31,864 bases of DNA from Paraphysomonas bandaiensis (GCA_965644295.1 CBFFRP010000589.1:1-31864); one strand, 5' to 3'; positions 1,072-19,312 are shown, numbered from the stretch's first letter. Notes: generated by a model from the letters alone, not told the origin. Made by a program: numbers and translations.

Positions 1072-2027
1072 TTAATATTGCAATGTTGCAAAACCGTTTT
1101 CAATCAAAATGACTTGATCAAAATAAGCGTATGTATCTATGCGTGCGGTCACAGTGGGGGCACCTGAGGAAAAACGAGGCATAAAAAATATATCGTCAGT
1201 GCTAGAATTATAACCCTGGTATACTGTTTCCATACCTGAGCTGCTGTAACTTTCTAAATCTAAACCTAAATAAAAGTTGGATGATGCTGCACACCCGTCA
1301 TAATCGGCTGCTGTCTCGGTACTAGCATCTGACGCTTGCATATCATAAGTATTTATATTAATGCTTGGTTCATGATTCAAATCGCTTACGCTTCCAATTG
1401 CTCTGATCAATTCGCCGAAAAATTCAGGAAGGCAACTAGGTGCTTTAGTTGGTACGGTCTTACTACCTAATCTAACACTGTATGACTCTAGACCGAAATG
1501 ATTTGATGACAGAGGGAAATAGGTGACTTCTCCAGCGTGTTTATCGCGCATACTGAAAAATAGAGATCTTAAAGAGTTATATTTAGCGGGTACGGGAACA
1601 CTAAGTTCAACGTTAGCGGCAATATTTCCAGTATGTGAATAATTTCTGTAATCTTGTACAACCCACCTTAAAGGTCCATTTGATGCCAAATTAATTTTAT
1701 TCATTGCGTCATCTGATAACTCCATAAAATTACAAACATATTCAACGTCATTAATAGCTATTGATGTTATGGCTTTATTGCAACAAATGCCCTCTAATGG
1801 ATTATTAACCAGAACTATTTCTAGACGTAAAGGCGCGCCGGTCATTGCAAACAGTGGAATATATTTATCACTGTAGCTTAAAAAATTCATTATTGGTACT
1901 GTATAATATCGTTTAGTTGTACTGCCCCCATTTGCAACTTGTGTGAATTCATTAAGTCTTTCACCAACAATTAAACCCTCGTTTGTGCTTGTTGCGCTGT
2001 TAACAATACTGAAACTTTCCGTTCCTG
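1072..2027 (-). pseudogene. PLV major capsid protein, C-terminal part (interrupted by the Gypsy element)
   Basis: Beta-rich jelly-roll-like sequence (KYIPLFAMTGAPLRLEIVL, YNSLRSLFFSMR, FYLGLDLESY, DTYAYFDQVILIENG). It joins in frame to 10943-11346 once the insertion and one TSD copy are removed. Confidence 0.85.
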
Positions 2028-3387
2028 TGTGACCACGTGGCATTTCACATGCCTCAGTCACGTGTCTATAGTAAGTGCAAAACTACTAACTACGGGATGA
2101 AGACAGAGACGATAGAAGTATCAGAAACATATCATTATTACGCTACAGATTACTGAAGAACTAGCACTAGGACTGGAGGTACAATTTCCCATAATCTGCC
2201 AACAGCTCTTCGCCGGCCGCAACTGCCCGAGTGGTCTGCACCCAGACCACGTCCAAGCCGGACTCATCTACTACAAATTCGCAGTTGAAGCGCCAGCCAG
2301 CAGCATGGTCAGAAGGATACACCGTGTTTATATACCTACCATGATTATGAGGCACCCGGGCCAAATAAGCTTGGGACCCCAGCGGCCAAAGGTAACCTAT
2401 GTCCCGAGTGTCCCGCTCCGCATCTATATAGAAGTCCTTAGCTATCTCAAGTATGTATGCTCCCCAGCTAGGACGGGAGGTATACACTTCACCGCTGTAG
2501 AGGCAGAAACGCAGTCCTGGCTCCAAATCCTGTAAGGAGAATAAACCTTGCTGTTCAGGCTTATCGCCCTGCGGGTTGGCAATGTTTAGGCCAGACCGGA
2601 CTTCCACATAGGGATTCACTGTCCCACACCTCTGGTAGAAGTCCAACACGCACTGGTAGACTTCACCTCTTGCATCATACGATGACGAGTGCAAGTAAGG
2701 AACAACTTTGCACAGTTGCTTATGTGCATCAAGTTGTCCCTCGGGGCATCGAACGGAGCGTTCCCACATACGCCTAGCAGCAGCCCTTTCACGGTAGGCA
2801 CACCGATACCGATTGGACCTACGTAATAGAGAGCCCCGTCCCCTACGATTGCGAGGTTTAGGCTTAGTGGAGCCCGCTGCTGGATCTGTAGTGGCAGACA
2901 TTGTTTATGCAGCAATGGATATGATGTATGTATCTGATGTGGACATTGGTTCTTAGTCTGAGATAGTAGATGTAGGAAAAGCATCATACGGTATGCTGCA
3001 CACTCACATACATGTTGGTCCATTGTAATACAGTAGCAGTACTCTGAATACGCAGTATTCAACGGCTAATTTACAAACTGGCGAGTGTGGTGTGTGGTGT
3101 CATCGCGAGTGTGGTGTGTTGTGCTTGTTCTATGTTGCATTGCTTTACAGCTCAGTGTTTTGTTAAGTGTTGTTCTGTTTGTACACTAGTGTTCTGACTT
3201 CACTGGAGGTGGGGTTTGCGCGGTGATTCTTGGAGGGAGTCACTAGTACAAGCTTGCAACGCTTGACATACTGTTTAGAGTAATAATCATCCTGTTCTCC
3301 TGCAATCAGACGTACATATAGCTCTGGTTAACTCATTGTGTTTGTTTCTGCTGCACAGCCTTGGTTATCAAACCTGGCTGTGTCATA
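2028..3387 (+). repeat. 5' LTR (1360 bp), termini TGTGAC...GTCATA
   Basis: Matches 9884-10942 apart from a 301-bp indel and 6 substitutions (visual alignment). Confidence 0.95.
2167..2901 (-). CDS. SET-domain protein (putative lysine methyltransferase), antisense within the 5' LTR
   Basis: SET motifs in canonical order: QGLFSLQDL, CLYSGEV, YIDA, GRYINT (cf. RFINH), NCEF, TTRAVAAGEELLADYG..Y (cf. GEELxxDY). Basic NLS-like N-terminus KPKPRNRRGRG. Confidence 0.88.
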   Translation of the reverse strand: MSATTDPAAGSTKPKPRNRRGRGSLLRRSNRYRCAYRERAAARRMWERSVRCPEGQLDAHKQLCKVVPYLHSSSYDARGEVYQCVLDFYQRCGTVNPYVEVRSGLNIANPQGDKPEQQGLFSLQDLEPGLRFCLYSGEVYTSRPSWGAYILEIAKDFYIDAERDTRDIGYLWPLGSQAYLARVPHNHGRYINTVYPSDHAAGWRFNCEFVVDESGLDVVWVQTTRAVAAGEELLADYGKLYLQS

Positions 3388-3914
3388 GTAATTAATTACT
3401 GAAAAAAGCAGATCAGCGCTGATAGTAATTGTTACACATACAACTCATTTTGCAATATTTGCAACACTTGTTATTCTTGCACATTAGAATACTGAGCTTG
3501 GCCTTTATTAGCCTCCTCGTATTCGAATAGTCCTTAGAGTCTATAGATTGCATACCAGTGCAAGCTTAGGGATTAAGGAGTGATATCTTGCAGTGTTTGA
3601 GAATACATATCCGTGAGCGCGGACTCCGTTAGACTGCGTCGTTAAGAGTGTACCTTGAACACTGCAACAAACTCAACATTTTGGAAAACTGCTCTTATCG
3701 CATTGACAACTGACCGTCTGCGAAATGAGTGGATACCTCAATTATTGAGTGGGTGAGATAGACCTTGTAAGAGACTTGCAATACAATTTTATCGCATAGA
3801 CAACTGACTGCCTGCGAAATACTTGTACAGCAATATCTACATAGTTTGATCTTGCGATAGCTCCAATAAACCTGAGCCCAAGCTGTCCTGTAATTAATAA
3901 GACCGCAATTCAAA

Positions 3915-5717
3915 ATGTCTACTCCTAGTGGCAAAAGGACCAGCAAGAAGCCGTCCACTGCTCCACGGCGTCCTAAACCAGTGGTACAGGAGGACTCACC
4001 AGATAAAATAGATGAGAGTCAATACGAAGAAGCGCCCATGATGCCTTCACCTTCTGCCCCAGCATCCTCAGCAACCCAACAGATTCTGGACTCAGTACAG
4101 GAGATCCAAGGCACCCTGGGACAAGTAGCCTTTGCGATATCCAACCTAGACAGTAGGGTACAAGCTCTGGAGAGTTCTAAGAGAGCAGATACACCTGATT
4201 CACCAGACACCCAGAGTGATGACACACCTGATTCATTCAGTAGCAAGGGCAGTAAAGCAAGTACCACACCCAGGGGAGTCACTAAGCGTGCTAAGAAAGA
4301 CCGACCAAAACCCCGTTATTCCACTTTAGGAGATCTGGCTACATTCAGGAGATTGCCAGAGAAGAAAGAGCAACTGAGTGAGGAGAGCTCCGACTCAGAG
4401 CTTGAGGAAGAGGCAGAAGAACATTTGGGGCGTCTTGCCAGTGTTTTTGGAGAGAAACGTCCAGGAAAGTTCTTCCGGAATTTGAAACGCAGCGCCAAGG
4501 TGGCCCAAGCTAAGACTGTCAATATAACTAGGCTTGAGAAGAAGTGTCACGTCAGGATTGAGACATTCAAACTTGGTAGAGTTTCAAGGGCGATCAAGGA
4601 GATTCTGGATTTCCAAGAAGAGGAAGAAACAGAAGTCCGCATCCAGAAAGTTTTATCTAGAAACCTGAAGGATCACTTGCGTTCCGTCTATGATATTCAA
4701 CACGCAGAATTAGCTAGCATGGACATATCTGACCTCATGAGAATCGTAGCCCTAGAGACGAAAGTTTTCAGCTGTGTTGGGTTTTACAACGAGCTGAAAG
4801 AATCTCTCAGCCATATGAAGGTCATGGAGTGGGATAATGTCAACGCTGTCAATTTTGAAGCCTTCTATTTTCAACAACTTCGTTTGATAGAATCCTTTAA
4901 AAGGATGTTGTCTATCATGTTGGAAAATGAAAGCAACAGGCGTTGGTGTCCACAGGCTGACGACAAGGAATACGGCCTTATTAGGCTATTTAAAACCCTG
5001 AACGACGTCACATATGTGAAATTTGTTCTAGGTTGTATTCCGAAGAAGAAGTTCGACTTTATGGAAGACTTCTTCAAACTATATACGGAGGTACTGTTAG
5101 ACCATTACCAGATCACGATTGCTTATAAACAGTTGCCCTTCAAAGCAACCGTGCAACATCAGGCGAAGTATGAGGAATACATGAAGCGCAAGCGTGAAAT
5201 GTTTTCTAGACCTAAGTCTGGAGTGGCAAAGAATTCCACTAGCACCCACTCTTCTACCAGGTTATTTAACATGGAAGAGGAACAGGCTTCTTTTTCTTCA
5301 AATGAATTTTCTCATGATGAAGAAGATTTATGGGATGCCTATGGGGATACATGGAAAAGCAACAACCACAGTACCGATGTTCCTACTGGCGGCAAACCTA
5401 ATGGCGAGCCAGCGACCGAAACTTCTGAAGAGAAAGATACATCCGACTCAGAAGGAGCTTTGCAAGCTATGGATGGCCAGAATCCATCTCATAAACCCAA
5501 ACAAGAGAAGTATGGGTGCATGAGAAAAATCATGTATGGCAAGTGCGACAAGAGTGATTGTCGTTATAGCCATAATCCTAGAGCTCTCGCCAATACCGCT
5601 TCGGAATTGGCTGAGAAATCCCAAGCTTATTTGAAGACCACTTCTTCAACTTCGGGGTCTCAGGATAAACCTCCTGCTATTTTAAGGAGAGATCGCTTCG
5701 GCGACTCTCGTCCTTGA
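3915..5717 (+). CDS. gag: Gag-like protein (600 aa) with coiled-coil segment and C-terminal CCCH zinc finger
   Basis: Long ORF between the 5' LTR and pol; C-x8-C-x4-C-x3-H motif CMRKIMYGKCDKSDCRYSH at 5517-5573. Assignment rests mainly on position. Confidence 0.75.
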   Translation: MSTPSGKRTSKKPSTAPRRPKPVVQEDSPDKIDESQYEEAPMMPSPSAPASSATQQILDSVQEIQGTLGQVAFAISNLDSRVQALESSKRADTPDSPDTQSDDTPDSFSSKGSKASTTPRGVTKRAKKDRPKPRYSTLGDLATFRRLPEKKEQLSEESSDSELEEEAEEHLGRLASVFGEKRPGKFFRNLKRSAKVAQAKTVNITRLEKKCHVRIETFKLGRVSRAIKEILDFQEEEETEVRIQKVLSRNLKDHLRSVYDIQHAELASMDISDLMRIVALETKVFSCVGFYNELKESLSHMKVMEWDNVNAVNFEAFYFQQLRLIESFKRMLSIMLENESNRRWCPQADDKEYGLIRLFKTLNDVTYVKFVLGCIPKKKFDFMEDFFKLYTEVLLDHYQITIAYKQLPFKATVQHQAKYEEYMKRKREMFSRPKSGVAKNSTSTHSSTRLFNMEEEQASFSSNEFSHDEEDLWDAYGDTWKSNNHSTDVPTGGKPNGEPATETSEEKDTSDSEGALQAMDGQNPSHKPKQEKYGCMRKIMYGKCDKSDCRYSHNPRALANTASELAEKSQAYLKTTSSTSGSQDKPPAILRRDRFGDSRP

Positions 5718-5732
5718 GATAAGGAGGTTAAC

Positions 5733-8700
5733 ATGATTGAGGACCTAGAAGAACATGTGATCAGTGTTTGTGATGGGAATGATGATTGTGATTATCTCCC
5801 AGAGGCTAAAACATTGAATACTACTTCTTCAAAGGTCCATTTCAAGGATGGAGCTAAGCTGTATGCTTCATATCCTTCAGCCAAGAAATTTTCATCAGCA
5901 CATACTGTAGGTAGAGTAATTATAGACAAGAAGTTCGGAGTGGAAGAATTAGTGAAAGTTTTATGTGACACAGGAGCCCTATCCGCTAACTACGTAGCAC
6001 GTGATCTTGTGGATAGATTGCGTACCAAGCTAGAACCTAGCAGGTTCTACAAGGTCAAACACCGTGTGGTTTTGGCAGACAGTAGAACCGTAAAGGATCT
6101 TGACGAAGGGGTTCGATTGAACTTAGTGTTTACCGATCCCAAGAGTCACACTTACCAGTACACTGGTGAGTTCATCGTGATCGACATGTCATCTAATGAC
6201 ATTATTTTGGGACTACCAGCCCTCACTGGGAAGCTATACCCTTTCATGTGTGCTGTCATGGAGCAGGCCCATGAGAATCATCTCGAAGATTCGGCTCAAG
6301 GGAACCATAATTTGAGTGCCCTACAAAATGAGGACATGGAATCCAGAGAGGAACACCGACGTCCCTGGAGTAAAGCGAATGATGCTATCGCTCCAGAAGA
6401 TAACGAGACTGAGTTACCCGTTCAATTCAAAGATGCTTTGACATTCCTCGGAAAGTCTAGAGAGGAAGCTCTTAACGACTACTATGAACAAATAGAAACT
6501 CACGTCAGTCAGGAGATGAAACAAGAGACCAACATTATGGATCTCTTATCTTCCAAAGCTGAGAAGGTATTCGTGCCTGATGAGTGGACAGGAGTCCGAG
6601 GTGTTGACCCTTTGACTCTTAAGTGGAAAGAAACTTTACCTGAAAGAATGAAACCCAGAGCCAGGCCGATCAACCCTAAGCTCTGGGAAGCATCCGAAAA
6701 GGAGTTCAGGAGACTATGTGGTTATTTTTACCAGAAGAGCAGATCTCCTTGGGCTTCATGCTTGGTGGTTGCTCCCAAGGCTACTCCACCTTATATCCGA
6801 TTCTGCGGGGATTATGTTAACATCAACAAGCACATGCAAGTGGGTAATTATACAATTCCCAATGTCAAGCATGAATTGGACAAGATCATCAATTTCCCAT
6901 TGTATATGGATATCGACTTGACCAACGCTTTCCATCAGATACCTCTAGCGGAAGAAACATCAGAGAGGCTTTCTATCCAGACGCCATGGGGCCAATATGC
7001 GCCAAAGTTCATGCCAGAAGGTATTGCGCCGGCTACTGGAATTCTGCAAGAGGTAGTCAGGGAAATATTTGAAGATTTTTCTGACTGGGCCATTGTAATA
7101 TTTGACAACATGTTGATATTGGCCAACGACCCTCAAGATGCGTATCAGAAATTTGAGAAAGTGATTGACAGATGCATCGAGAGGAATCTCAAACTGAAAA
7201 TGCCAAAGAGTTGGCTTGGATTTAGAAAAGTAGACTTCTTCGGATACGTATGCAGACACAAATCCTATGAAGTCAATCCTGAGAAGAAGGAAGCCCTAGG
7301 CAAAATCCCAATGCCTACCAACACCAAACAAGCGAGGTCTCTGCTTGGCAAGGGCGTGTTCTTTTCCAGTTTTACCCCTAGATATTCAGACTTGGTTGCT
7401 CATCTCACAGATTTGACCAAATCGAAATTCAATTGGGACAAGACTACGTGGCGGCACGATTATGAGGCTGAATATCGTCGCTTCATAAAAGGCCTGCAAG
7501 ATTCCTGCGAATTGTTCTACCCAGACTACAATTTGGAGTGGACACTGCGTACTGACGCTAGTGAGCTAGGAATCGGCTCGGTGCTTCTGCAGAAAAAGAT
7601 TCTCGCAGATGGAACAGAGCAGTTGCAACCCATTGCCTTCCTATCAAAGAAGTTTTCAGCTCAGGCTCAGAAATGGGCTACGATAGAGCAAGAAGCTTAT
7701 GGTATTTACTACAGTGTCAAGCACTTAGCGTACTATTTGATTGGGAAGCAGTTCACTATAGAGACTGACCACAATAATCTCTTGTGGATGGAGTCGTCTG
7801 AAGTACCTAAGATCACAAGATGGAGAATTTTCTTGCAATCTTTCAACTTCAGCATTAAACACATATCGGGTGCCAAGAATTGGTTAGCCGATTGGTTATC
7901 TCGGGAGCATCAAGTTGCGGCGTTGTCCGGTATATTCTTAGATGAAGACTATGCCGATGCCTACTTCCTTGGAGAGGACTGCACTGAGGATGAATTTTTT
8001 AACTTCTTGGGCAATTTTATGAACCCAGAAGACAGGGAAGTATCTCCTCATGCGCAAAGTTCAGTCACTCCCGAGGATGCCTTGCAACAAGTACATAATG
8101 CCCGAGTTGGACATCTCGGTGGGCGAGCCACTTGGATTCGACTTAATAAGCAATTCCCCGGCCATGGAATTCCTTACAAAGTAGTCGAAGACTTCATTGC
8201 GAAGTGTCCAAACTGTGTTAAGACTAGATTGGCGATGAAAGAAGCGCTGATCCCTATAGTCCGAAACCTTAAGCCTCCGAGCGCTCGGAGTGCTATTGGT
8301 ATTGATGCGGTAGAAATCACACCCCATGGTGCTGATGGATACACGCACATTAATGTCGTAGTCAACCTGTTCACCAAGTTAGTTTATCTTGAGCCAGTCA
8401 AAGGAGTGACTGCCCTCAACTTGGCAAACACGGTATGGAAGTATTGGAGTTACTACGGACACACTGATCTTATCATCTCAGATCAGGGTCCTGACCTAAC
8501 TTCCGATCTTTTCAAACAACTGACTGAATATATGGGCGTCCGACACACCTTCAGCATAGCCAACAGGCATGCTAATGGTTGTGAACGCATCATCGGTGAG
8601 GTGGTCCGACATTTGCGTGCCCTAGTATATGAAAACAGCAAGCGTGTAGAACGAAAGGATGTTTTTGAGGATCCCAGCTGGATACCCAGCGCTCAATACA

Positions 8701-9698
8701 TTCTGAATTCAGAAGTCTCATCCGAGACGGGGTACTCACCCTTTGAGCTCACTTTTGGCTCTAATGATCTGGAATATTTAACTATGAATATACAGACTTT
8801 GCCTGAGCGTGCACACGCCAGACTGACTGCTCTTAATGAACAGTTAGAAGGCCTACGGGCGGCTTCCAAAACTTACCAGCAGCAGTTAGCGAGTGAACGT
8901 GCTGGGGAGGGAGTTCACCCGGACAAGCAGAACCGATATCAACCGGGCGACTTCATTTTATTTGACAAAGGCGCCAAGGTTCATCCCAAGATGTCACATC
9001 GATACATGGGACCTTTTGTTGTTAAGACCCAGTACAAAAATGACATTGATTGTCAGCACCTTGCTACAGGGCAAGTGGTACGTGTTTCAGTGACAGACGT
9101 CAAACTGTTTCCAGGTGATAGAGAAACTGCGTACAGCATGGCTCTACGAGACCAGGATCAGCATGTCATTGACAAGATTCTCTACTATCGGGGTGACAGA
9201 GAGTCACGCTCCACTTTGACTTTTACTGTGAGATTTCAGGATGGTGATGTCAGAGAAGTGCCTTATAGCAAGGACCTTTTTGACTCAGTGCCTTACGCGG
9301 ACTTTTGTTCCAGCAAACGGTACCTCTACCACCTGATTTATCCAGCGGAGGGTGCCAAGAAATATATCTCGGACATCCGACGCCAGTCTATCACTCAGTT
9401 CAAACCCGGTGACCATGCATATGTTGACCTACGCATTTATGGCGACGTATGGTACGACGGACTGCAGTTACCAGACTCCCACTTACTGACCTATGTAGCT
9501 CCGATCCAGTTCACACACTGGTATCATCGAAGCTCTAGGAGAGTATTATCCGTCAAGGATCTTCTCACTCTCCGCACTTACCGTTATGACAACTACCTCG
9601 TGCATTGTTTCGTTCACCCTGAACTAGACACTAGCACTATGGTACTCGTCGACAAGGACTTGGCTACACGCTACCCTCAAGTCCTTGAGTCCGCTTAG
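5733..9698 (+). CDS. pol: Pol polyprotein: aspartic protease, reverse transcriptase, RNase H, integrase, chromodomain-like module
   Basis: PR LCDTGA. RT RFCGDY, DIDLTNAFHQI, MPEGI, IFDN. RH TDAS, EQEAYGI, TDHNNL, ADWLSR. IN H-x6-H...CPNC, IGID, ISDQG, CERII, GPF. Then HVIDKILYYRG...FTVRFQDG. Confidence 0.96.
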   Translation: MIEDLEEHVISVCDGNDDCDYLPEAKTLNTTSSKVHFKDGAKLYASYPSAKKFSSAHTVGRVIIDKKFGVEELVKVLCDTGALSANYVARDLVDRLRTKLEPSRFYKVKHRVVLADSRTVKDLDEGVRLNLVFTDPKSHTYQYTGEFIVIDMSSNDIILGLPALTGKLYPFMCAVMEQAHENHLEDSAQGNHNLSALQNEDMESREEHRRPWSKANDAIAPEDNETELPVQFKDALTFLGKSREEALNDYYEQIETHVSQEMKQETNIMDLLSSKAEKVFVPDEWTGVRGVDPLTLKWKETLPERMKPRARPINPKLWEASEKEFRRLCGYFYQKSRSPWASCLVVAPKATPPYIRFCGDYVNINKHMQVGNYTIPNVKHELDKIINFPLYMDIDLTNAFHQIPLAEETSERLSIQTPWGQYAPKFMPEGIAPATGILQEVVREIFEDFSDWAIVIFDNMLILANDPQDAYQKFEKVIDRCIERNLKLKMPKSWLGFRKVDFFGYVCRHKSYEVNPEKKEALGKIPMPTNTKQARSLLGKGVFFSSFTPRYSDLVAHLTDLTKSKFNWDKTTWRHDYEAEYRRFIKGLQDSCELFYPDYNLEWTLRTDASELGIGSVLLQKKILADGTEQLQPIAFLSKKFSAQAQKWATIEQEAYGIYYSVKHLAYYLIGKQFTIETDHNNLLWMESSEVPKITRWRIFLQSFNFSIKHISGAKNWLADWLSREHQVAALSGIFLDEDYADAYFLGEDCTEDEFFNFLGNFMNPEDREVSPHAQSSVTPEDALQQVHNARVGHLGGRATWIRLNKQFPGHGIPYKVVEDFIAKCPNCVKTRLAMKEALIPIVRNLKPPSARSAIGIDAVEITPHGADGYTHINVVVNLFTKLVYLEPVKGVTALNLANTVWKYWSYYGHTDLIISDQGPDLTSDLFKQLTEYMGVRHTFSIANRHANGCERIIGEVVRHLRALVYENSKRVERKDVFEDPSWIPSAQYILNSEVSSETGYSPFELTFGSNDLEYLTMNIQTLPERAHARLTALNEQLEGLRAASKTYQQQLASERAGEGVHPDKQNRYQPGDFILFDKGAKVHPKMSHRYMGPFVVKTQYKNDIDCQHLATGQVVRVSVTDVKLFPGDRETAYSMALRDQDQHVIDKILYYRGDRESRSTLTFTVRFQDGDVREVPYSKDLFDSVPYADFCSSKRYLYHLIYPAEGAKKYISDIRRQSITQFKPGDHAYVDLRIYGDVWYDGLQLPDSHLLTYVAPIQFTHWYHRSSRRVLSVKDLLTLRTYRYDNYLVHCFVHPELDTSTMVLVDKDLATRYPQVLESA

Positions 9699-9855
9699 AG
9701 CACGGGACCAATCAACTTACACGTGACCTTCCAACTCCAACGCTCCTCTGCTGCACCTTCGTTTTGATGGCTAATTTTTAGTTCCGTTGAAATTTGTGGG
9801 CCGCAGAGTGACGCCCGTCTTCATCATTTCGCATAATACTTATATCAAACAAACA

Positions 9856-9880
9856 AAAAAAAAAAAAAAGGGAGGCGGGG
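9856..9880 (+). other. Polypurine tract (plus-strand primer)
   Basis: A-run followed by GGGAGGCGGGG, 3 nt upstream of the 3' LTR start. Confidence 0.85.
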
Positions 9881-9883
9881 CAA

Positions 9884-10942
9884 TGTGACCACGTGGCATT
9901 TCACATGCCTCAGTCACGTGTCTATAGTAAGTGCAAAACTACTAACTACGGGATGAAGACAGAGACGATAGAAGTATCAGAAACATATCATTATTACGCT
10001 ACAGATTACTGAAGAACTAGCACTAGGACTGGAGGTACAATTTCCCATAATCTGCCAACAGCTCTTCGCCGGCCGCAACTGCCCGAGTGGTCTGCACCCA
10101 GACCACGTCCAAGCCGGACTCATCTACTACAAATTCGCAGTTGAAGCGCCAGCCAGCAGCATGGTCAGAAGGATACACCGTGTTTATATACCTACCATGA
10201 TTATGAGGCACCCGGGCCAAATAAGCTTGGGACCCCAGCGGCCAAAGGTAACCCATGTCCCGAGTGTCCCGCTCCGCATCTATATAGAAGTCCTTAGCCA
10301 TCTCAAGTATATATGCTCCCCAGCTGGGACGGGAGGTATACACTTCACCGCTGTAGAGGCAGAAACGCAGTCCTAGCTCCAAATCCTGTAAGGAGAATAA
10401 ACCTTGCTGTTCAGGCTTATCGCCCTGAGGGTTGGTGGATCTGTAGTGGCAGACATTGTTTATGCAGCAATGGATATGATGTATGTATCTGATGTGGACA
10501 TTGGTTCTTAGTCTGAGATAGTAGATGTAGGAAAAGCATCATACGGTATGCTGCACACTCACATACATGTTGGTCCATTGTAATACAGTAGCAGTACTCT
10601 GAATACGCAGTATTCAACGGCTAATTTACAAACTGGCGAGTGTGGTGTGTGGTGTCATCGCGAGTGTGGTGTGTTGTGCTTGTTCTATGTTGCATTGCTT
10701 TACAGCTCAGTGTTTTGTTAAGTGTTGTTCTGTTTGTACACTAGTGTTCTGACTTCACTGGAGGTGGGGTTTGCGCGGTGATTCTTGGAGGGAGTCACTA
10801 GTACAAGCTTGCAACGCTTGACATACTGTTTAGAGTAATAATCATCCTGTTCTCCTGCAATCAGACGTACATATAGCTCTGGTTAACTCATTGTGTTTGT
10901 TTCTGCTGCACAGCCTTGGTTATCAAACCTGGCTGTGTCATA
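9884..10942 (+). repeat. 3' LTR (1059 bp; lacks 301 bp present in the 5' LTR)
   Basis: Direct repeat of 2028-3387; junction GGTTGG|TGGATC at 10435/10436. Confidence 0.95.
10023..10456 (-). pseudogene. Internally deleted, frameshifted copy of the SET ORF in the 3' LTR
   Basis: Same C-terminal SET sequence as 2167-2901. The 301-bp deletion (not a multiple of 3) disconnects it from the original ATG. Confidence 0.82.
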
Positions 10943-11346
10943 CCTGATAAAATTGTGTGTTTGTTAATAAAAGAGTCGTTGGACTGTTGCAAAGCCATTA
11001 ACTGACCAACTAGATTATTATAATTCTGAATATCTGAAAGTAAAGTAGAGCCATGAAATACTCGCACTCTAGAAATTAGGGAATGAATACCGGCCTTATC
11101 CAGTCTTACGAATTCTGCTGTGGTCGCGGGGTTAGATGTTTCTGTGTTTACTATTAAGCTTAATTTTAAAAGTGAATCAGCGCCCGACATTACGAGATTA
11201 CGACCGGTAGGAACATTAATAATTATGGTCTCTCCTGCACCATATGGCCCCAAACCATTTTGTGGAGCTATATTATTCTGATAATTACGCGCATAACTTG
11301 AATTTATATTATTTGTATACAATACGTTTTTTGGTAATCCTGACAT
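10943..11346 (-). pseudogene. PLV major capsid protein, N-terminal part (135 aa)
   Basis: MSGLPKNVLY...IAPQNGLGPYGAGETIIINVP...IHSLISRVRVFHGSTLLSDIQNYN is typical of PLV MCP N-termini. The last 17 aa of the listed ORF are read-through into the LTR. Confidence 0.85.
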
Positions 11347-11394
11347 ATATACTATAAATAGATAAATATTTTTTATAGTATAATAAAATATAAT

Positions 11395-11835
11395 TTATAT
11401 AAATGTGCTATCATCTTGTGTTAACTTAGCTAAAGCTTTTCTTGTGTTGTGTTTTTCTAATTTATTACCTGCGTTATGAGCCTTTTTAAATGCTTTTTTA
11501 CTGTGTTTATCGGCTTTATTATGGAGCTTATGTAGCTTATGTACGCCTTTATGTCCTTCGTGTAATCCTGCTTCCAATAGTCTAGATGCTGATCCAACAA
11601 CGGGCATTGTATTTAATCCTGCTTCATTAATAGCGTGTATAGTTTTATCGCCAACGCCTAATATTTTATCTGCTGTGTTAATTGCTTTTGCTGATTTATC
11701 AAGACCTTTATTTACTCCATGTTGGACCTTGTCTAATACGTCGTGTGTTTTTTGTCCTAGTTTATGTATTCTGTGATCGGCCTTGCGACCTAGTTTGTGA
11801 AATTTACGATTTAGCTTTTTGCCTAGTTTTGACAT
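11395..11835 (-). CDS. Basic His/Lys-rich protein, putative virion core or membrane-active protein
   Basis: 146 aa, very K/H-rich with KLG/HKL repeats and a short hydrophobic centre; lies between the penton and MCP genes. Function is inferred. Confidence 0.6.
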   Translation of the reverse strand: MSKLGKKLNRKFHKLGRKADHRIHKLGQKTHDVLDKVQHGVNKGLDKSAKAINTADKILGVGDKTIHAINEAGLNTMPVVGSASRLLEAGLHEGHKGVHKLHKLHNKADKHSKKAFKKAHNAGNKLEKHNTRKALAKLTQDDSTFI

Positions 11836-11865
11836 GTATATATACTATATTGAGAGAAATATTTT

Positions 11866-12603
11866 TTATTCAATAGTTAATAATAAATTTAAAGACCAAT
11901 GTAAACCGTTTAATTCCAATACATCTGCGTCTTGGTCTAATAATTGGACATGTAAAGTATTTATATTATGTATATCATGTACTAAGCTCTTAATATTATT
12001 AATATTTTTATAATTAATAATAGATCCTGCGTTAACATCAACAGGTACAGAGGTAATAATAGAGGCTTTATTAGGTGTAGCACTATTTATATTATTTAGA
12101 ACGAAATTAGACGATGCTATTAAAACGTTTCTTACTGTAAATAAATTTATACCAATTGTTGATAATAATATTAATGAATCTGAATAATAGGTTATATTAT
12201 CTTCAAATCCTAATAATTCAAAACAGGTTGAAGTGTTTGAAAAAGAAAAATCATAAGTACTATGGGTAAATTGTAATTTATTAGTTGATGAGTTATAAGT
12301 TATTGTAAATCCTGGTTCTAAATTGGACTGTAAAAAACTTATTAATGTTCTAATATTATAATTGGCTTTTGTAATTGTAAGTGAATATGGAACACTATTT
12401 AATGTATAATTCAGTGTGTTATTGGTTGAATTAACATTATAAAAAGAGTATGGTATAGAGGCGTCAATTACTGATATATAGGCTTTATGACGTCGTTTAA
12501 CATCTATCTTTGGCAATATAAAAATACAATCAGTAGTTTTATTATTTAGGTATTGATTAGCTGTCTTGCTGTTTAGAACAATCTGTATTTTCTCCATTAA
12601 CAT
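11866..12603 (-). CDS. Minor capsid (penton-like, single jelly-roll) protein
   Basis: ASIPYSFYNVNSTNNTL, ITKANYN, ITYNSSTNKLQF, ELLGF, QLLDQDADVLELNGLHWSLNL: motifs typical of PLV/virophage minor capsid proteins. Confidence 0.85.
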   Translation of the reverse strand: MLMEKIQIVLNSKTANQYLNNKTTDCIFILPKIDVKRRHKAYISVIDASIPYSFYNVNSTNNTLNYTLNSVPYSLTITKANYNIRTLISFLQSNLEPGFTITYNSSTNKLQFTHSTYDFSFSNTSTCFELLGFEDNITYYSDSLILLSTIGINLFTVRNVLIASSNFVLNNINSATPNKASIITSVPVDVNAGSIINYKNINNIKSLVHDIHNINTLHVQLLDQDADVLELNGLHWSLNLLLTIE

Positions 12604-12772
12604 TATCAGATATTTTTATTTCTGCAAAATCATAGGTTAACATGTCTGTATCTATATTGTTATTTCTGTTTAATTTTGGTGTGTCTAAGTTAATCACTCT
12701 GTCTAAGTCTATAATATTTTTCTTTGAAAATTCATAATTATCATAGTTTATTTCCCATTCTAGGCCGTCCAT
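12557..12772 (-). CDS. Small hypothetical viral protein
   Basis: ATG at 12772 is preceded by the TATATA-type motif seen before neighbouring genes; overlaps the penton start. Confidence 0.5.
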   Translation of the reverse strand: MDGLEWEINYDNYEFSKKNIIDLDRVINLDTPKLNRNNNIDTDMLTYDFAEIKISDNVNGENTDCSKQQDS

Positions 12773-12812
12773 ATATAAGTATATCACATAATATATTTAT
12801 ATATTTTACATC

Positions 12813-12855
12813 TAAGGGATAATTTCCCCGAAAATTTAGGGATTTTTATCCCTTA
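12813..12855 (-). terminator. Stem-loop at the stop codon of the 12853-13137 ORF
   Basis: TAAGGGATAA...TTATCCCTTA perfect 10-bp arms with an inner TCCC/GGGA stem. Confidence 0.45.
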
Positions 12856-13137
12856 TTTCCATCCTACAGAATCACTGCGATATTCACCGTGTAGAAAATC
12901 ATATTTTCTTAATAATTCAGTCCTTTTATCTTCGTCTTTATTTTCATATATGATTAATTGCCGTTCATTTAATAGCTCTACTTGTAACTCTTTCTTTTGT
13001 TTTTGAAGTTCTGATAATGTAATTTTCATGTCTTCTATTTCTCTGTCTAAATTTCTTATCTCTTCCTGAATTTTAGGCATATGTGTTTTTCTAATGCAGT
13101 ACACTTCTCCTTTCAACTTTAATAAATACTCACTCAT
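12853..13137 (-). CDS. Hypothetical coiled-coil viral protein (94 aa)
   Basis: ORF with heptad-like E/K/L pattern and the conserved upstream motif. Confidence 0.7.
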   Translation of the reverse strand: MSEYLLKLKGEVYCIRKTHMPKIQEEIRNLDREIEDMKITLSELQKQKKELQVELLNERQLIIYENKDEDKRTELLRKYDFLHGEYRSDSVGWK

Positions 13138-13192
13138 TATAATATATGACTATATATTTTTTTAAAATTATTTTATATTTTTACATATGTAA
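13135..13192 (-). promoter_or_regulatory. Conserved AT-rich viral promoter/leader
   Basis: Near copy of 14008-14060; minus strand reads TTACATAT...AATATAAAATAAT...AAAAAAATATATAGT...TATTATAATG. Confidence 0.55.
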
Positions 13193-13212
13193 TAATTGAA
13201 ATAAATTATAAT

Positions 13213-13539
13213 TTAACAGTCCTCGTCACTGTCTGTGTCATCATCAATATAAACATTTCTAGTACTTATAGGGAGACGAACCCTATAACGGTCATACCTC
13301 TTGCTGCGGTGCAATTCTAATAGCTGCCCCTTAGTTAACAAAGACATTTTTTTATCTTGTATTTTATTGCGGAGATTAACTAATTCTTCGTTTATGTTAT
13401 TCTGTTTTTCTATTAAAATGTTCAATTTTATTACGTCTTGATCTATTTCGTCCTGTACGTTTGTTTTATGAGAACGTTTAATGCTATAAAATCTATCATC
13501 TATATCCATTGAGTAAAATTTACTTTCGGCCTTTGACAT
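13213..13539 (-). CDS. Hypothetical coiled-coil viral protein (108 aa)
   Basis: ORF preceded by TTATATTATAATG; acidic tail. Confidence 0.7.
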   Translation of the reverse strand: MSKAESKFYSMDIDDRFYSIKRSHKTNVQDEIDQDVIKLNILIEKQNNINEELVNLRNKIQDKKMSLLTKGQLLELHRSKRYDRYRVRLPISTRNVYIDDDTDSDEDC

Positions 13540-13578
13540 TATAATATAACATTACAAAAAAATAATTCTATAATGTTT

Positions 13579-14010
13579 TTAATGCGTTAGTTTATCAATA
13601 GTATTCATTGAATATGCCCACTTATCCGTTTTCATTTTCTTTTTATCGCCGTCATTTTCAATAATATAAACAACTGATTCCCAAAACTTATTTTTAAGAT
13701 AAAATTCATCTAGAACATCATCACCTTCGTTTTCTCTTAAACCTAAATTAATAACAGCTCTTTCACGCCAATCATAATATTCAGGTAAATTGTCTGCTGG
13801 TCTATAAGTAAGAAGACCGCTATTTATAACACTCTCATCAAACCGTCTGTTTAATATATCATTGACTTCATCAGCTGGCCTATTTAACTTATGTTTTAGA
13901 CAGTCAAATGGATCATTATGAATGTACTTTTTATGTTTGTAGTAGTATTTACCATTATGCTTGGAATCAACATTTTCGCAACAACTGAAATATTTTAATT
14001 CTTTTGACAT
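13579..14010 (-). CDS. Hypothetical viral protein (143 aa)
   Basis: ORF with the conserved upstream motif; no family recognised. Confidence 0.7.
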   Translation of the reverse strand: MSKELKYFSCCENVDSKHNGKYYYKHKKYIHNDPFDCLKHKLNRPADEVNDILNRRFDESVINSGLLTYRPADNLPEYYDWRERAVINLGLRENEGDDVLDEFYLKNKFWESVVYIIENDGDKKKMKTDKWAYSMNTIDKLTH

Positions 14011-14060
14011 TATAATATAACTATATATTTTTTTATTATTTTATATTCTTATATATGTAA
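14008..14060 (-). promoter_or_regulatory. Conserved AT-rich viral promoter/leader
   Basis: Near copy of 13135-13192. Confidence 0.55.
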
Positions 14061-14638
14061 AACAGGGAGTAAAATACGGCATGTCTATATATAGTGTTAA
14101 ACAGGTCTGTTGTTCCGTCTATCTGTTGTAATTGTTCGGTGTTTAAGTCAGGGTTGGTTGATTGTTTGGTTGATAGGGTCGGTTGATCGCTGGGGTTAAT
14201 ATGTATAGTATTATTTTATTTTGATTGCATTTTTTTTGACATTTTTTTTGAAAATATTTATTTTGGAATTTATTTTTTTAGAAAAAAGTTTTTTTTAAAG
14301 AAAAATGTTGTAAAAAATGTAGTGTATACTGTTACAGAATTTGTGAAAATAAGATTTTTTTTGCATTTTTTATTGTGAAAGGTGACACGACATTTTTTAT
14401 GCAAAAAAGTGTATAAAAAAATGTAATGTACAATATTGGGATTACTTGCACGTGATACACAGCGATACCATAGGGGTAAGGGTTGGTGTATATTAATAGT
14501 TTGCATGGTCACGGTTAACACTGTACAGGGGGTGAAATCCCCCTCTCCTCTCTCTTTTTTTCAATATAATTGTATTGTAGTTATAATTTGTATCTGACAT
14601 TATATAATATTTACTTATATAATAATTTTTATAAATAG

Positions 14639-15102
14639 TTATTCTAAACTATTTAAGATTTCATTTAACTGTTCATCATCTATTCTACCTAGCTTATTTA
14701 GTCTTTTCAATATGTCTATTCCTTCTTTTAATACTTCATTGCTGTTGTTTCCTGCTCTTATATACTCCCTTGCAATAGTTCAAATCGCTTTAATAAATCT
14801 TCTTCCGTTAGTTCTGGCTCTTTGTATTTCAATTCTGTCTTTGCTCCTGATTGTATCATTATGATGTTAAATAACTTCTTCTCTTCTTCTGTTAGTCGTT
14901 TTATCATTTCATAGTTTAGTTCATTTGTGTCTATTAAGTTTAACAACAACACACTCGCAAACTCTGGGCTTATTGTTCGTGTCTTTATATATCTGCTGAA
15001 TGGTGACCCTGTCTCATATAATACCATTAGCTTATTGTCTAATAACTTCATTACATTTATTTGTAGTTTGTAAAACTTCTTATAGTTCTTTTTAATTGTC
15101 AT
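14639..15102 (-). pseudogene. Viral hypothetical protein with a 2-nt (TA) frameshift near 14760
   Basis: The ORF stops at ...LLQGSI*. Removing one TA from AGTATATAAGA gives ...RFELLQGSIRAGNNSNEVLKEGIDILKRLNKLGRIDDEQLNEILNSLE* (153 aa). Confidence 0.65.
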
Positions 15103-15151
15103 TATTATATAATATACTATTATATTATATTATATTTTATACTATTGAATA

Positions 15152-16552
15152 TTAACCAAATCTAACTCTCATGCTTCCAACCTTTCTGATCTTTAATCCT
15201 TTACCATCTTTTATAATGTCTTCTTGTGGTTCTTCTTTTACTTCATCTTCATCGTCATCTTTTCTTTTCATTTCGTCTTCTTCTCTTCTTATATCGTGTA
15301 TAGTTCGTGTAATTGATTTTCTCGGTTCTCTTGGTTGTTTTGCTTCTGCAATATTTCCTTCTTGTTCTGCTATTCTTTCTCTTAATATTCTATCTATTGT
15401 TCTGATTCCTGAGTCTTTGATAAATTTATATAAACTTTTCTTTTGTATTCCTGTTGCTTTTCCGCCTTTTGGTGTAAAGAGTGGTGCAACTTCATTATAA
15501 GATTTCAAGTCATCTTTATTAACTCGTGTTGAACTATCTTTATATTCGTCTCCTCCTTGATTCAATATTCTAATCAATCTTACCACATTAGCTGACATTG
15601 CCTTCATTTCTTCTAATGTCATGGAATTTACTTTATTTATAGCTCGTTGTGTCTTTTCATCATATACTTCTTTTACTTCTTTTATCTCTTTCTCTTCTTT
15701 CTCTTCTTCATCATCATCTTCTATTTGTTCGTCAAAGCTAAAGTCATAATCATCATTTTCAATATGAAAATCTTCATCTTGATTTGTTATTGATGATATT
15801 GAATCATCGTGATAATCAGAAACTGGGTAATTTTGAAATTGTCTTGTGAAACTTTCTAATGATTTTTTGTCTATCTTTTGTATTTCTGGAACAATTGTGT
15901 CTTCATCAACTTCTTCATCAAAATCAGGTAAATCTGACATTTCATAAGCTTGTTTCACTTTGCTTTCTCCATACTTCTTAATCAATGATTCTAAAGTTAG
16001 TTGCAATGCTTCAAGTCTATCATTTAAATCATTTTTAGTTTCGTTTGATATACCTGCTATATTAGTTAAATGTCGTATTATTGCATCAACTTCTTGTTCT
16101 GATGATAAAAGATTTCTTATTCCTGATGTGTTCTTTTGATTTTCAAGATATCTATATACAAAGTCATACATTTCTTGCGCTCTCACTTTACCTACCTTAT
16201 TAGATAAAGAAGAAAACATACCTAAAAAATATTTGTTAAAGTCAACAAAGTTTTTATATCTACTATTTTTTAATTTATTCAAAAAGTCTTGTGCCTCGTT
16301 ACCGTCATTTTTAAACAACTTCAAAGCGTTCTTTTGTGCTGTCTGTGATTGTAATACTTTATCTTCTTCTTTTTCTGCTAGTGTTCTATTATCTCTTACT
16401 TCTGGTGTAATACCTTGTTTTAAGTGTTGTTGCTCTTCTGATATATTCTTGCTAATGTCTGATAATATTTTTAAGTCGTTTAGTTCCTTTTGTCTAAAAT
16501 ATTTTGCTTTTTCCTCTGGACTTAATCTTCTTATTTCAAAACTTGATAACAT
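15152..16552 (-). CDS. Large acidic/charged hypothetical viral protein (~466 aa)
   Basis: Long AT-rich ORF. ATG at 16552 follows TATTATATATAAAAAT; the upstream ATG at 16600 lies inside the neighbouring Copia-like sequence. Confidence 0.75.
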   Translation of the reverse strand: MLSSFEIRRLSPEEKAKYFRQKELNDLKILSDISKNISEEQQHLKQGITPEVRDNRTLAEKEEDKVLQSQTAQKNALKLFKNDGNEAQDFLNKLKNSRYKNFVDFNKYFLGMFSSLSNKVGKVRAQEMYDFVYRYLENQKNTSGIRNLLSSEQEVDAIIRHLTNIAGISNETKNDLNDRLEALQLTLESLIKKYGESKVKQAYEMSDLPDFDEEVDEDTIVPEIQKIDKKSLESFTRQFQNYPVSDYHDDSISSITNQDEDFHIENDDYDFSFDEQIEDDDEEEKEEKEIKEVKEVYDEKTQRAINKVNSMTLEEMKAMSANVVRLIRILNQGGDEYKDSSTRVNKDDLKSYNEVAPLFTPKGGKATGIQKKSLYKFIKDSGIRTIDRILRERIAEQEGNIAEAKQPREPRKSITRTIHDIRREEDEMKRKDDDEDEVKEEPQEDIIKDGKGLKIRKVGSMRVRFG

Positions 16553-16567
16553 ATTTTTATATATAAT

Positions 16568-16795
16568 AGTCGGAGTATGAGCTCCGTCGCTCCTCTTCAT
16601 TCCATATCGTACTGTGTACTTATGTACTTATGTACTTGTACATAGGTACGATGCTGTCAGGTACACATACGATGGTGTCACTTCACGTACGATGGTTGAA
16701 GTTTTGTCTAGGTTGTTCTTTTCATATCTCACATAATTATAATACATATAATTAAGTTCGATTGCTTTCTCTTGCCTTCACATCATCTGCTTACT
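16568..16795 (+). repeat. Putative 5' LTR of the Copia element (~228 bp, AGT...ACT)
   Basis: Lies between the abrupt composition change at ~16568 and the PBS. No partner LTR in the window, so the boundaries are inferred. Confidence 0.45.
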
Positions 16796-16833: not shown

Positions 16834-18545
16834 ATGCCTCTTCCACCTGCTAGTACTGCAATTCATGAGTTATCTGTCGCTGACTGTGACAGACTCTCTA
16901 CATACCTCGAGAATCTCTCCTTGATGGTCCAGAATTGGACGGTTCCCCAATACCCCGCTTCTATCAGTGACTTCCCTCACTTTGAACATCGTTTTAAGGA
17001 GTACCTTCGTCAGGCCAAGCTTCTTGATATTCTTACCCAGTCTTCTGTCAGGGTACCAGCGGCCCCAGATGACGCTTCAGAGGAGACCAAACTATTGATC
17101 ACTTGGCGACAAGCAATGTACGACGAAAAGAACAGTCTCGTCTACGCTTCTCTTCAGAAAGCCTTCATGGACAACGCTTCGGGTATTGCTCATATCGGAG
17201 ATGTCCAACCTGGGGATGGTTACACTGCTTGGCGTAATCTCATTGCTCATGTGGATCGTGCGAAGTCTTCTGGTGAGCATGCTGCAGACAGGAAAGCCTT
17301 CTACCATGATGCTCAGCGCTCCGATGAGGACATTGCAACCTTTGCTACACGACTCCGTACGACAGCCTTCAAGCAAGGTCTTGGTGAGGCTGATATGATT
17401 CATCAGCTATATTCTGGTTTTCGTGATCCGACAAGGGATCAGCGCGTCAAGAGTATCGTACAAGCACTGAAGGATGGCTTATCTTTTGATGCTCTCCTGG
17501 CTAAAATTGAGAGGATTCTAGCCGACCAGCCTTCCGTTGCCTTGGTTGATCCTAAAGTGCCACGGAAGAGTTACTGCAAATACTGTCATAAACATGTTGT
17601 TCATAAGCCGTCTGACTGTTATCGTAACCCTTCTAATCAGGATTCCTCTGCTGCCTCGAAACGTCAGAAATATCATCATGGTCCTCATTGCATTCTTTGT
17701 GGAAATCGTGGTCATTTTGCTCCACAATGTGCTCTCAAAGTTGCCGGTCAGCAGATTCCTCAAAATCCAGATGGTCGTCATGCCCAACCACAGCGCGCAG
17801 CCGGACATCAAGCCCCACCTCTTCCCAATAACCAAGGAGCTTTCAGGTCACCCCGTCGAGGTCCAGGTCGTCCTCCCAAACGTGGTGGTCGTAGTGGTCG
17901 TGGTCGTGGTGCAGGCCGTGGTGATACACGCTCGCGTCATGTTGCATTCGTCGATGACCCAGATACAATTCATACTTATGATCCAGAGTTTGATGGCTAT
18001 ACTCCAGATGATTCTATTTCCTCTACTATGCTTGCTAATGATTCTGATATTGATGCACATTACACTGCCATGATTACTTCTAATTCGTATGATGCTTATT
18101 ACACAGTATATGACATGTCATTCTCTACAACACCTGATACTACTCCTACACAACCTGATTTCATTGAAGTACATTTGGATAGTGCATGTTTTGATCATCT
18201 CACCAATTGCAAACATGTTTTGTCCTCATATACTCCCAATACAGATCATTATCTATATGTTGCAGATAAGCATCGACTCAGGGCTACTGGTGCTGGGAAC
18301 ATGTCCTTCTTCGGCAACGTCTCCTATTATCCAGAGCTCGGTAAAACTCTGTTGTCAGAAGGCCTTATGTTGGAGCAGGGTTGGCGTTTCAACTATTTGG
18401 ACAACGGCGACAAACTTGCCCTTTATACTCGTGATACAACTGTTCCTAATATTTTATTTAAATATAGGTATCGTTATTGGATAGCGCACTTACCGCTAAA
18501 TGTATCACCTGTGTCCTTTTCTGTGTCCAAAGATTCTGTGGCTAA
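16834..18545 (+). pseudogene. Copia Gag-protease (5' part of the interrupted polyprotein)
   Basis: GDGYTAWRNL Gag motif; knuckles CKYCHKHVVHKPSDC and CILCGNRGHFAPQC; RG-rich tract; protease VHLDSACFDHLT...ATGAGNM...YYPELGKTLLS. Confidence 0.85.
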
Positions 18546-18809
18546 AAGCAAACTTTTTTCAAACTTGGGAAAAATTTCTAAATTTGGGACTTTTTAAAAA
18601 TTTCATCATGAAAACCTCATGTTTATTGTTGATATAATTTAGACAGAGGTAATGAAGAATATTAATGTTGTATAATGATGACGATTCCAAGAAACCTTGT
18701 TTTTACATTTGGTCTTAACCACACTCATTAACCACAGTCAGTAACCACACTTATAAGAAGTAATATATATATTTACGTCCAAATCAATTAAATTTATTGT
18801 ATTACTCTA

Positions 18810-19145
18810 CTAAATAGTACTATCAGAGAGTGTGCTTGCATACACATACAAATCGTTTGCTAGAGTTTGACAATAACCAAAGTACTCAAAATCTTCGGAA
18901 TCGACATTCATTATATGACGATATGCGTTGACAGTGTTTTCTATTATACAACCAAACATAAACAAATAAATTATGCTCTCCCGCCTCACCCAAACGCCCA
19001 TTGCCACCATCCCTGTGTGGTCATACCCTCTGTTTGATTTGCTTGTTGTATTTGTCATAGGCATAAAACAGCTTGTAATATAGTCATCACGCACAGGAAT
19101 ACATATATGATGTCGAGGCCTTGGTTGTCCGCCTCGTATACGCAT
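18810..19145 (-). pseudogene. Possible C-terminal remnant of a DDE transposase
   Basis: W...IIYLFMFGCIIENTVNAYRH...YCQTLANDL resembles the C-terminal helices of piggyBac-like transposases; no catalytic core present. Confidence 0.3.
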
Positions 19146-19312
19146 TACTTAATACTGTATGTTGCTTCCCATCTTTCCTATGAGCGTGCACAACTATTTG
19201 CTTCTTTCTTTTGTTCTATACCCATTCCATTTTCCCCACATATCTACTCCGTGCTGCACCAATCGTGTCAACAACGCAGGAATTGCTTCGGATTAATAAT
19301 CCCTCTACGAAT

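Follow-up and report, generated by a model that had tools for sequence, protein, structure and literature searches.

An intact Ty3/Gypsy retrotransposon from Paraphysomonas bandaiensis carries an antisense SET-family gene inside its long terminal repeat

Introduction

What is a gene for a putative lysine methyltransferase doing inside the long terminal repeat (LTR) of a retrotransposon? LTRs are normally non-coding, and the retroviral LTR ORFs nef and MMTV sag are exceptions. We analyzed a 31,864-nt stretch of DNA from Paraphysomonas bandaiensis (CBFFRP010000589.1 of GCA_965644295.1), referred to here as the window, for which an earlier note had reported a SET-domain gene encoded antisense within the LTR of a Gypsy element.

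Results

Structure of the element

The window contains an intact Ty3/Gypsy element that carries an antisense SET-family ORF inside its 5′ LTR (Table 1). Its class was recognized from the domain order in pol, the two LTRs, the target-site duplication (TSD) and the polypurine tract. In pol, the Pfam models RVT_1, RT_RNaseH, Integrase_H2C2 and rve matched in that order, the protease domain gave a weak match (E 0.18), and the closest solved relatives were the Ty3 enzymes (Ty3 Gag-Pol, E 1e-43). The TSD is 4 bp long, CCTG, on both flanks. The gag-like ORF, whose ATG is separated from that of the SET gene by 1014 bp, has 13 relatives, its own family at 99% and 12 others at 34–47%. The element was detected in 20 of the 24 runs listed, which represent 11 studies and mainly marine metagenomes. 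Among the named sources of its relatives are MMETSP transcripts and small size fractions of Tara, and its host is likely a small marine protist.

Table 1 Features of the element and its insertion site in the window.
Feature	Position	Strand	Remarks
C-terminal part of interrupted target gene	1072..2027	-	no Pfam, PDB or IMG/VR match
Left TSD, CCTG	2024..2027	+	junction inspection
5′ LTR, 1360 bp	2028..3387	+	ends TG...TA (TGTGAC / GTCATA); blastn against 3′ LTR and junction inspection
Intact SET-family gene, 244 aa, ATG start	2167..2901	-	Arg/Lys-rich N-terminus, helix, SET domain
gag-like ORF, 600 aa	3915..5717	+	weak CCCH finger near C-terminus; divergent from SET gene
pol, 1321 aa, PR-RT-RH-IN order	5733..9698	+	in frame with gag behind one TGA
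Polypurine tract	9855..9880	+	precedes 3′ LTR; same tract before LTR in runs X1 and X15
3′ LTR, 1059 bp, 301-bp deletion in SET gene	9884..10942	+	self-comparison; deletion joint also in RNA run X16
Broken SET copy	10023..10456	-	starts with the ATG at 10456; frame shifts after codon 7; rest of the SET-coding part at 10023-10435
Right TSD, CCTG	10943..10946	+	junction inspection
N-terminal part of interrupted target gene	10943..11346	-	reading phase same as part at 1072-2027

No TGG was found directly after the 5′ LTR as part of a tRNA primer-binding site, and a search for self-priming found no complement of at least 8 nt, inside the LTR, of the 33 nt downstream of the LTR. A perfect 12-bp palindrome, GTAATTAATTAC, lies at 3388–3399, directly after the 5′ LTR, in the position expected for a tRNA primer site. 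At the gag/pol junction (5715–5735), the two ORFs share a common frame and are separated by one TGA and five codons, followed by the ATG of pol; possibly, gag-pol is expressed by stop read-through or re-initiation.

The catalytic motif of the reverse transcriptase reads IFDN in the window and in the relatives L058 and L060 and LFDN in L057, and YxDD is absent. This Asp-to-Asn change at a normally essential site is shared by the window and all three RT-bearing relatives with long open frames, so it appears to be a trait of the lineage and not decay. A similar 25-nt motif starting with TGACGCCCGTC occurs at 9809–9833 of the window, before the polypurine tract, and on the minus strand of the relative L004 near 190–215, upstream of its SET gene.

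The SET gene and its two copies

The 244-aa minus-strand ORF reported earlier was confirmed; it begins with ATG and lies wholly within the 5′ LTR, starting 486 bp inside the LTR 3′ end and stopping 139 bp from the LTR 5′ end. At the composition of the LTR, the probability of such an open frame of 244 codons by chance is about 4e-6. The protein has a predicted long helix (residues 22–50) and a SET domain (about residues 97–239), without the post-SET zinc cysteines. All of the SET motifs listed in the earlier note are present. The SET model of Pfam (PF00856) matched residues 119–238 with 22.8 bits, narrowly above the cut-off of 22.4, and four relatives scored 23.3–38.9 bits.

The ORF had also been described as duplicated in the 3′ LTR. 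This holds for the SET-coding part (approximately codons 108–244); the 3′ copy is not intact, as the 3′ LTR lacks 301 bp corresponding to 2580–2880 of the 5′ LTR, and its SET remainder has no in-frame start before codon 153. We rejected a separate element nested in one LTR, as the SET-coding part is in both LTRs and neither inverted ends nor a TSD were seen around the ORF. An assembly artefact was also rejected as the source of the deletion because the same joint recurs in a contig of the independent RNA run X16. The LTR pair differs by six substitutions, all at 2398–2572, and the other 370 and 507 bp are identical. This clustering suggests recombination or conversion between two LTR variants, not ageing. 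If the gene lies in U3, this copy would likely pass the deleted form on to its progeny.

Three different deletions in the SET gene circulate: 301 bp (X16), 211 bp (X16 and X1) and 302 bp (X1). In X16, the depth was 86.5 for the contig with the 301-bp deletion, compared with 43–47 for contigs spanning the intact segment; in X1, deletion joints made up less than 1% of the depth, and a DNA contig of X10 carries the intact ORF. An RNA contig of X15 departs from the SET gene at 2684 into at least 255 unrelated bases, representing an LTR variant with an insertion or rearrangement. The protein cluster to which the ORF belongs has 76 members; among the 15 listed, nine are full length and three are 150-aa calls with both SET motifs, so that 12 keep both motifs, and three are truncated or frameshifted.

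Within populations, 13 variant sites were identified in the SET gene, 12 from run contigs and one from the LTR comparison. Nine were nonsynonymous and four synonymous (about 3.2:1 expected if neutral), and the gag N-terminus had seven and two, respectively (about 3.5:1 expected if neutral). With these small numbers, neither region has a purifying signal at this scale. None of the nine nonsynonymous SET variants falls in the 29 columns conserved at 80% or more.

The SET family and its active site

The ORF is a member of a stand-alone SET family: a six-sequence profile, searched against 1.84 billion entries, matched 352 representatives at E ≤ 0.001, and 99 clusters remained at the stricter limit of E ≤ 1e-10. 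An alignment of 70 sequences was made of the window's protein, four earlier relatives and 65 of 148 new matches, picked for coverage. Members combine a basic N-terminal segment with a downstream SET domain, whose signature is PPNYGRYxN[TS] ... GEELLxDYG; Arg and Lys account for approximately one quarter of the first third in most full-length members. Pfam SET was matched at E ≤ 0.01 by 62 of the 70 aligned members.

The catalytic-site columns are kept throughout the alignment: Y135 in 66/70 rows, N192 in 68/70, Y237 in 67/69 and G238 in 63/69; R189 is found in 62/70 (K in five). The earlier remark that the DY tyrosine is retained thus applies to nearly the whole family. At the motif corresponding to ELxFDY, E232 is present in 69/70, L234 in 63/70 and D236 in 53/70 rows. 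The His of RxxNH is absent from all 69 rows, which have Thr (40), Ser (25), Cys (3) or Gly (1). The earlier note had taken the Thr in the window as a caveat to activity. The change is real; it is a family-wide trait, and the doubt is largely answered, because the active enzyme LegAS4 also lacks this His, so that its loss excludes the canonical SET subfamilies but not activity. PRDM9 is a second His-less SET enzyme that is active. In the PDB profile-search alignment, LegAS4 reads RYINF at the His site; the canonical motifs are described as RFINH and ELxFDY (PMC3980110). LegAS4 is described as methylating H3K14, and its basic NLS also drives its nucleosome binding (10.64898/2026.05.29.728679).

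The residue preceding DY is V, A, I or L across the family, not Tyr. Under the Phe/Tyr-switch rule, a non-Tyr residue at this position allows multiple methylation, and the residue found here would therefore allow di- or trimethylation. Motif I of the window's protein is QQG, not GxG. The cysteines in the columns of window residues 144, 147 and 183 occur in 34/63, 37/68 and 42/70 members, and the window's branch lacks them; these three SET-I cysteines, present in about half or more of the family, are a possible metal site.

The AlphaFold model built from the 70 sequences had a pLDDT of 94.1 and a pTM of 0.85, compared with a pLDDT of 41.6 for an earlier, unusable model from six sequences. SET enzymes occupied the top rows of Foldseek (E 4e-7 to MLL1). 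In VIA, Set1, ATXR5, SET8, MLL1 and SET7/9 were tied at Z 10.7–11.0, the best having a Z of 11.0 and an rmsd of 2.3 over 115 residues. Together with the Pfam match, the model upholds the SET identity claimed earlier. The substrate cannot be read from the predicted fold because several SET subfamilies tie in VIA Z; SET7/9 (with TAF10 or ER peptides) and SETD6 (with RelA) are among the neighbours.

Of the 70 aligned sequences, 33 also matched the PRDM2_PR model at E ≤ 0.01, the best of them at 4.9e-7. This model did not match the window's protein, which ends six residues after DYG and has no C2H2 array; these results do not place it in the PR/SET (PRDM) group. In a quick SET tree, 26 of 68 inner branches were open, and the tree supports no origin. 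Full-length open frames with fixed active-site residues persist at 40–55% identity between relatives, and these comparisons argue for purifying selection on SET between families.

Linkage of SET to gag and to other mobile elements

We compared the listed sizes, a partial set, of contigs bearing SET clusters (68 values) with those of contigs bearing gag clusters (69 values). Exactly equal sizes were found for 5 of 4692 SET-gag pairs; at 200 other offsets, the mean was 0.345 and the maximum was 3. All five matches fall in two cluster pairs. The window's own SET and gag clusters share the sizes 7909 and 8086, serving as a positive control, and the sizes 5671, 6409 and 8470 occur in both SET cluster P0023 and gag cluster P0205. 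P0023 is 40% and P0205 45% identical to the respective proteins of the window; SET and gag thus diverged to a similar degree between the two Gypsy families. Co-inheritance of SET with gag in a second, diverged Gypsy family is strongly indicated by the equal contig sizes, if indirectly. For the 11 remaining gag clusters out of 13, no contig size equalled that of any listed SET.

Four loci with SET relatives (L001–L004) were available as DNA, of which L003 was too short for context. In L002, a SET relative of approximately 30% identity and a second ORF are divergently oriented across 938 bp, an interval that contains the LTR-end-like TGTCACA. This gag-like ORF scored 30.0 bits against gag P0208, above all of 500 plain and 500 block shuffles; its comparison with the window's Gag alone was not significant. 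The claim that the window's SET ORF belongs to the element, and is not a one-off capture, was thus strengthened by a second Gypsy family with SET and gag and by a third locus with the same divergent layout. In L004, SET is convergent on another ORF, which had no convincing match to the gag set and no Pfam match.

In L001, the SET relative lies 446 bp after Helitron RepHel genes. A shared sequence of 45–120 bp stands at the starts of three ORFs near these Helitron-like genes (550–673, 3400–3521 and 10899–10943) and is possibly an element-specific promoter. A 122-bp inverted repeat in L001 was considered as Helitron ends and dropped, as the repeat sits at gene starts.

In L057, whose pol is 50% identical, the initial 280 bp of the LTR are AT-rich and contain no SET, and none was found in its assembly. 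Assemblies G001 and G002 had no SET match, and G001 also had no LTR match; this absence shows little because both are bacterial bins with stray contigs. The eukaryotic SSU rRNA model had two matches, and it also matched in all 14 prokaryote controls. L055–L060 are contigs of the Gypsy lineage mis-binned or mis-joined into two bacterial GTDB assemblies, and L056, a bin contig in which part of a gag is fused to bacterial DNA, gave no LTR.

Searches in IMG/VR and GTDB genomes saw only sequences containing the patterns used. Within this scope, 181 pattern stretches of IMG/VR and 34 of GTDB contained no confirmed SET relative, a further IMG/VR search had no matches, and 50 further GTDB matches reached a best HMM E of 0.042, which is chance level. 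Queries with gag, RT and the capsid-like protein described below returned nothing in IMG/VR. Judging from the loci and clusters above, mobile elements appear to carry this SET family as cargo: some Gypsy families of the lineage have it, and Helitrons probably do too.

RNA cover and depth over the LTR

Four of the 20 element-bearing runs were compared over 1990–4800. The LTR was covered by RNA contigs from two studies; these contigs carry neither strand nor level. The leader and gag had little or no RNA cover, and a DNA run of the X15 sample continues there. The pattern over the LTR fits an antisense SET transcript starting near 3200, and LTR-rich, gag-poor cover fits 3′-biased sense genomic RNA equally well. 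We gave no weight to the gaps in RNA cover over the leader and gag; X1 has single-base gaps along the whole stretch, which are likely read errors. The earlier note expected the gene to persist in solo LTRs; the DNA contig depth of the LTR relative to the internal region, a weak measure of this, was only about 1.4–2 to 1. For the SET relative P0004, a 915-nt MMETSP transcript contains the complete ORF, which hints weakly at a discrete SET mRNA. A bacterial promoter scan gave chance-level scores, and bacterial models are not applicable to this DNA.

Insertion site and remainder of the window

The element interrupts an AT-rich minus-strand gene, the two parts of which total 451 codons. A clean insertion with a 4-bp TSD predicts a common reading phase, and both parts share the same phase. 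This gene is presumably that of the major capsid protein of a Polinton-like virus; neither part matched Pfam, PDB or IMG/VR. Its neighbours are genes for DUF5906 (helicase-like) and DUF5901 proteins with 26–35% GC. The AT-rich block around the insertion is likely an endogenous virus of the kind we take to be Polinton-like. The minus-strand block (1–2027 and 10943–16600) encodes the DUF5906 helicase-like, the capsid-like, a His/Lys-rich basic and the DUF5901 proteins.

Further downstream, a Copia-like gag/protease ORF at 16834–20988 (Pol_BBD, weak gag_pre-integrase) is interrupted by an insert of 1.65 kb, whose 36-bp inverted ends lie at 18542–18577 and 20155–20190. The rest of the window (21200–31864) is a higher-order tandem array with units of 1655 or 2001 bp, each of two or three 346-bp subrepeats, and contains six copies of an identical 134-aa minus-strand ORF.

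Discussion

We propose the following function for the SET gene. Antisense LTR promoters are known (HTLV), and such a promoter would produce the SET transcript. The product would be a small protein imported into the nucleus, where its basic N-terminal arm is predicted to grip nucleosomal DNA and the enzyme would di- or trimethylate a histone lysine. The mark might keep copies of the element active or block a silencing mark of the host. As the product would act in trans, LTRs with gene deletions could ride on intact copies, and the deletion variants observed fit this. That the product is an active lysine methyltransferase is predicted with good probability; the complete chain, an LTR-borne, trans-acting histone lysine methyltransferase that counters host silencing, we rate at slightly less than an even chance.

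Two alternatives would deny the gene such a role. A SET gene from another mobile element or the host may have been trapped once in an LTR and be decaying without use, as the broken 3′ copy, the three deletions in circulation, the neutral-looking polymorphism and the patchy presence among gag and pol relatives might suggest. Decay is difficult to reconcile with full-length frames that keep fixed active-site residues at 40–55% identity, with the similar divergence of SET and gag between two families, and with the intact ORF in the X10 DNA contig and the rarity of deletion joints in X1 (<1% of depth). We regard such a passenger as quite unlikely; the SET gene is very probably maintained cargo of the Gypsy element. 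Many PR domains are inactive, and a catalytically dead SET fold might serve as a histone-tail binder or as a decoy that blocks a host methyltransferase. The nearly invariant Asn192, Tyr135 and Tyr237 and the existence of an active His-less enzyme (LegAS4) argue against this, despite the missing RxxNH His (69/69), the QQG in place of GxG in the window's member and the 33 of 70 members that match the PR-type model, and a dead fold is very unlikely.

Other alternatives keep the activity and change its target or its use. The substrate may be Gag, Pol, a host silencing factor or a protein made by the Polinton-like virus or by the giant virus that helps it. The tied VIA scores single out no histone-specific subfamily, and SET7/9 (TAF10, ER peptides) and SETD6 (RelA) are fold neighbours; nevertheless, the basic N-terminus points to the nucleus and chromatin, and a family member also lies beside a Helitron, which has no Gag. 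A non-histone substrate is thus unlikely, and a histone remains our preferred target. It is also conceivable that a C-terminal extension of the integrase reads the methyl mark set by the SET protein and steers insertion to marked chromatin, such as endogenous Polinton-like viruses. The extension is conserved (42% to L057 over 90 columns), Chromo clusters are among its Atlas neighbours with scores of 0.84 and 0.83 (below 0.9, a lead only), this copy sits in an AT-rich virus-like gene block, and Ngaro types 1 and 2a are described as preferring endogenous virophages in Cafeteria (PMC8547959). We consider such a writer-reader pair improbable, given that the extension has no Chromo match in Pfam or PDB, that a single insertion site was seen and that the extension is also present in L057, where we found no SET.

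A broader reading, which we offer as doubtful, concerns a whole lineage of protist Gypsy elements. Their LTR would have become an antisense gene complete in itself, encoding a histone methyltransferase from a new SET family that is specialised for transposons and also used by Helitrons. Any LTR, whether solo or one of a pair, would in that case write chromatin marks wherever it moves. A chromo-like reader on the integrase might direct insertions to endogenous viruses that bear the mark, and LTRs with deletions would be cheaters that depend on intact copies.

If active, the protein would give an LTR retrotransposon a histone-writing enzyme of its own, and its gene would be an enzyme gene lying wholly inside an LTR; in the open literature that we searched, we found no published case of either. 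Each replication places a gene in this position at both ends of the element, LTR-LTR recombination leaves it behind, and annotation that masks LTRs as non-coding misses such genes. The RxxNH His is absent across a whole SET family. A small protein predicted to fold well, with about a hundred diverged relatives, offers a test of whether transposons use their own writers against histone silencing, and the same system could show which histone mark transposons choose.

Chlorovirus vSET is a small stand-alone SET protein that methylates host H3K27, and the earlier note had drawn a parallel with it. Viral SET folds do match; at 9–21% identity and with no relative confirmed in IMG/VR, the parallel is an analogy only. 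LegAS4/RomA of Legionella resembles the window's protein, as far as it is described, in its minimal SET domain, its missing His and a basic region, which in LegAS4 is an NLS that also binds nucleosomes. Unlike LegAS4, to which identity in alignments is 22–30%, the window's protein has no ankyrin repeats. LegAS4 and vSET are both used by a parasite to rewrite host chromatin; the window's SET protein would at best work like them, and is not a member of either.

The insertion itself has a counterpart in Cafeteria, where Ngaro retrotransposons are inserted in endogenous virophages (PMC8547959). In both cases, a GC-richer retrotransposon is nested in an AT-rich endogenous virus-like element. Unlike the window's Gypsy element, Ngaro has a tyrosine recombinase and split repeats, as described in the same source, in which the word "methyltransferase" occurs 0 times.

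Antisense ORFs are also described in plant Gypsy elements (Grande gene23, RIRE2 and Retand), located between pol and the 3′ LTR and without clear database similarity (PMC7264820). As in the window, the extra gene is antisense to gag-pol and kept by the element, and some of the plant products are described as nuclear; unlike these ORFs, the window's gene is wholly within the LTR and has a recognisable enzyme fold. The extra ORFs described for bdelloid elements lie in the internal region (PMC5408684).

Capture of modifying enzymes by Gypsy-type elements has been described for DAM-LTR and EpiLTR retrotransposons, together with DNMT-bearing Gypsy, DIRS and LINE elements (10.64898/2026.05.21.726589), and for an orchid Gypsy element with an m6A demethylase (PMC9289625). 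Like the window's element, DAM-LTR, EpiLTR and the orchid element captured and kept a chromatin- or RNA-modifying enzyme. As described, their enzymes modify DNA or RNA and sit in pol or an added ORF, in contrast to a SET protein encoded in an LTR; the string "SET" is absent from the main text of the EpiLTR preprint (10.64898/2026.05.21.726589).

The closest precedents are oomycete transposons with a SET lysine-methyltransferase gene of their own as a separate ORF. Such genes are described in the HarbingerS and MuDR DNA transposons of Phytophthora (Kojima and Jurka 2014, cited in PMC12730594) and in Phytophthora Helentrons, where they are described as Clr4-like (PMC4067079). The relative L001, which adjoins Helitron RepHel genes, recalls the Helentrons. 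Unlike these DNA or rolling-circle elements, the carrier in the window is an LTR retrotransposon with the gene antisense inside the LTR; the NYGRYxN[TS] motif marks the window's SET family, which is set apart from the oomycete SETs by their descriptions only. The earlier note, which knew of no LTR-encoded SET family, had overlooked these oomycete genes; within the open literature, the scope of our search, its statement stands for the LTR itself, as we found no description there of a SET gene carried by an LTR retrotransposon or located within an LTR. Transposon-borne chromatin writers are thus already known, and what is new here is the carrier, the position of the gene and the SET family.
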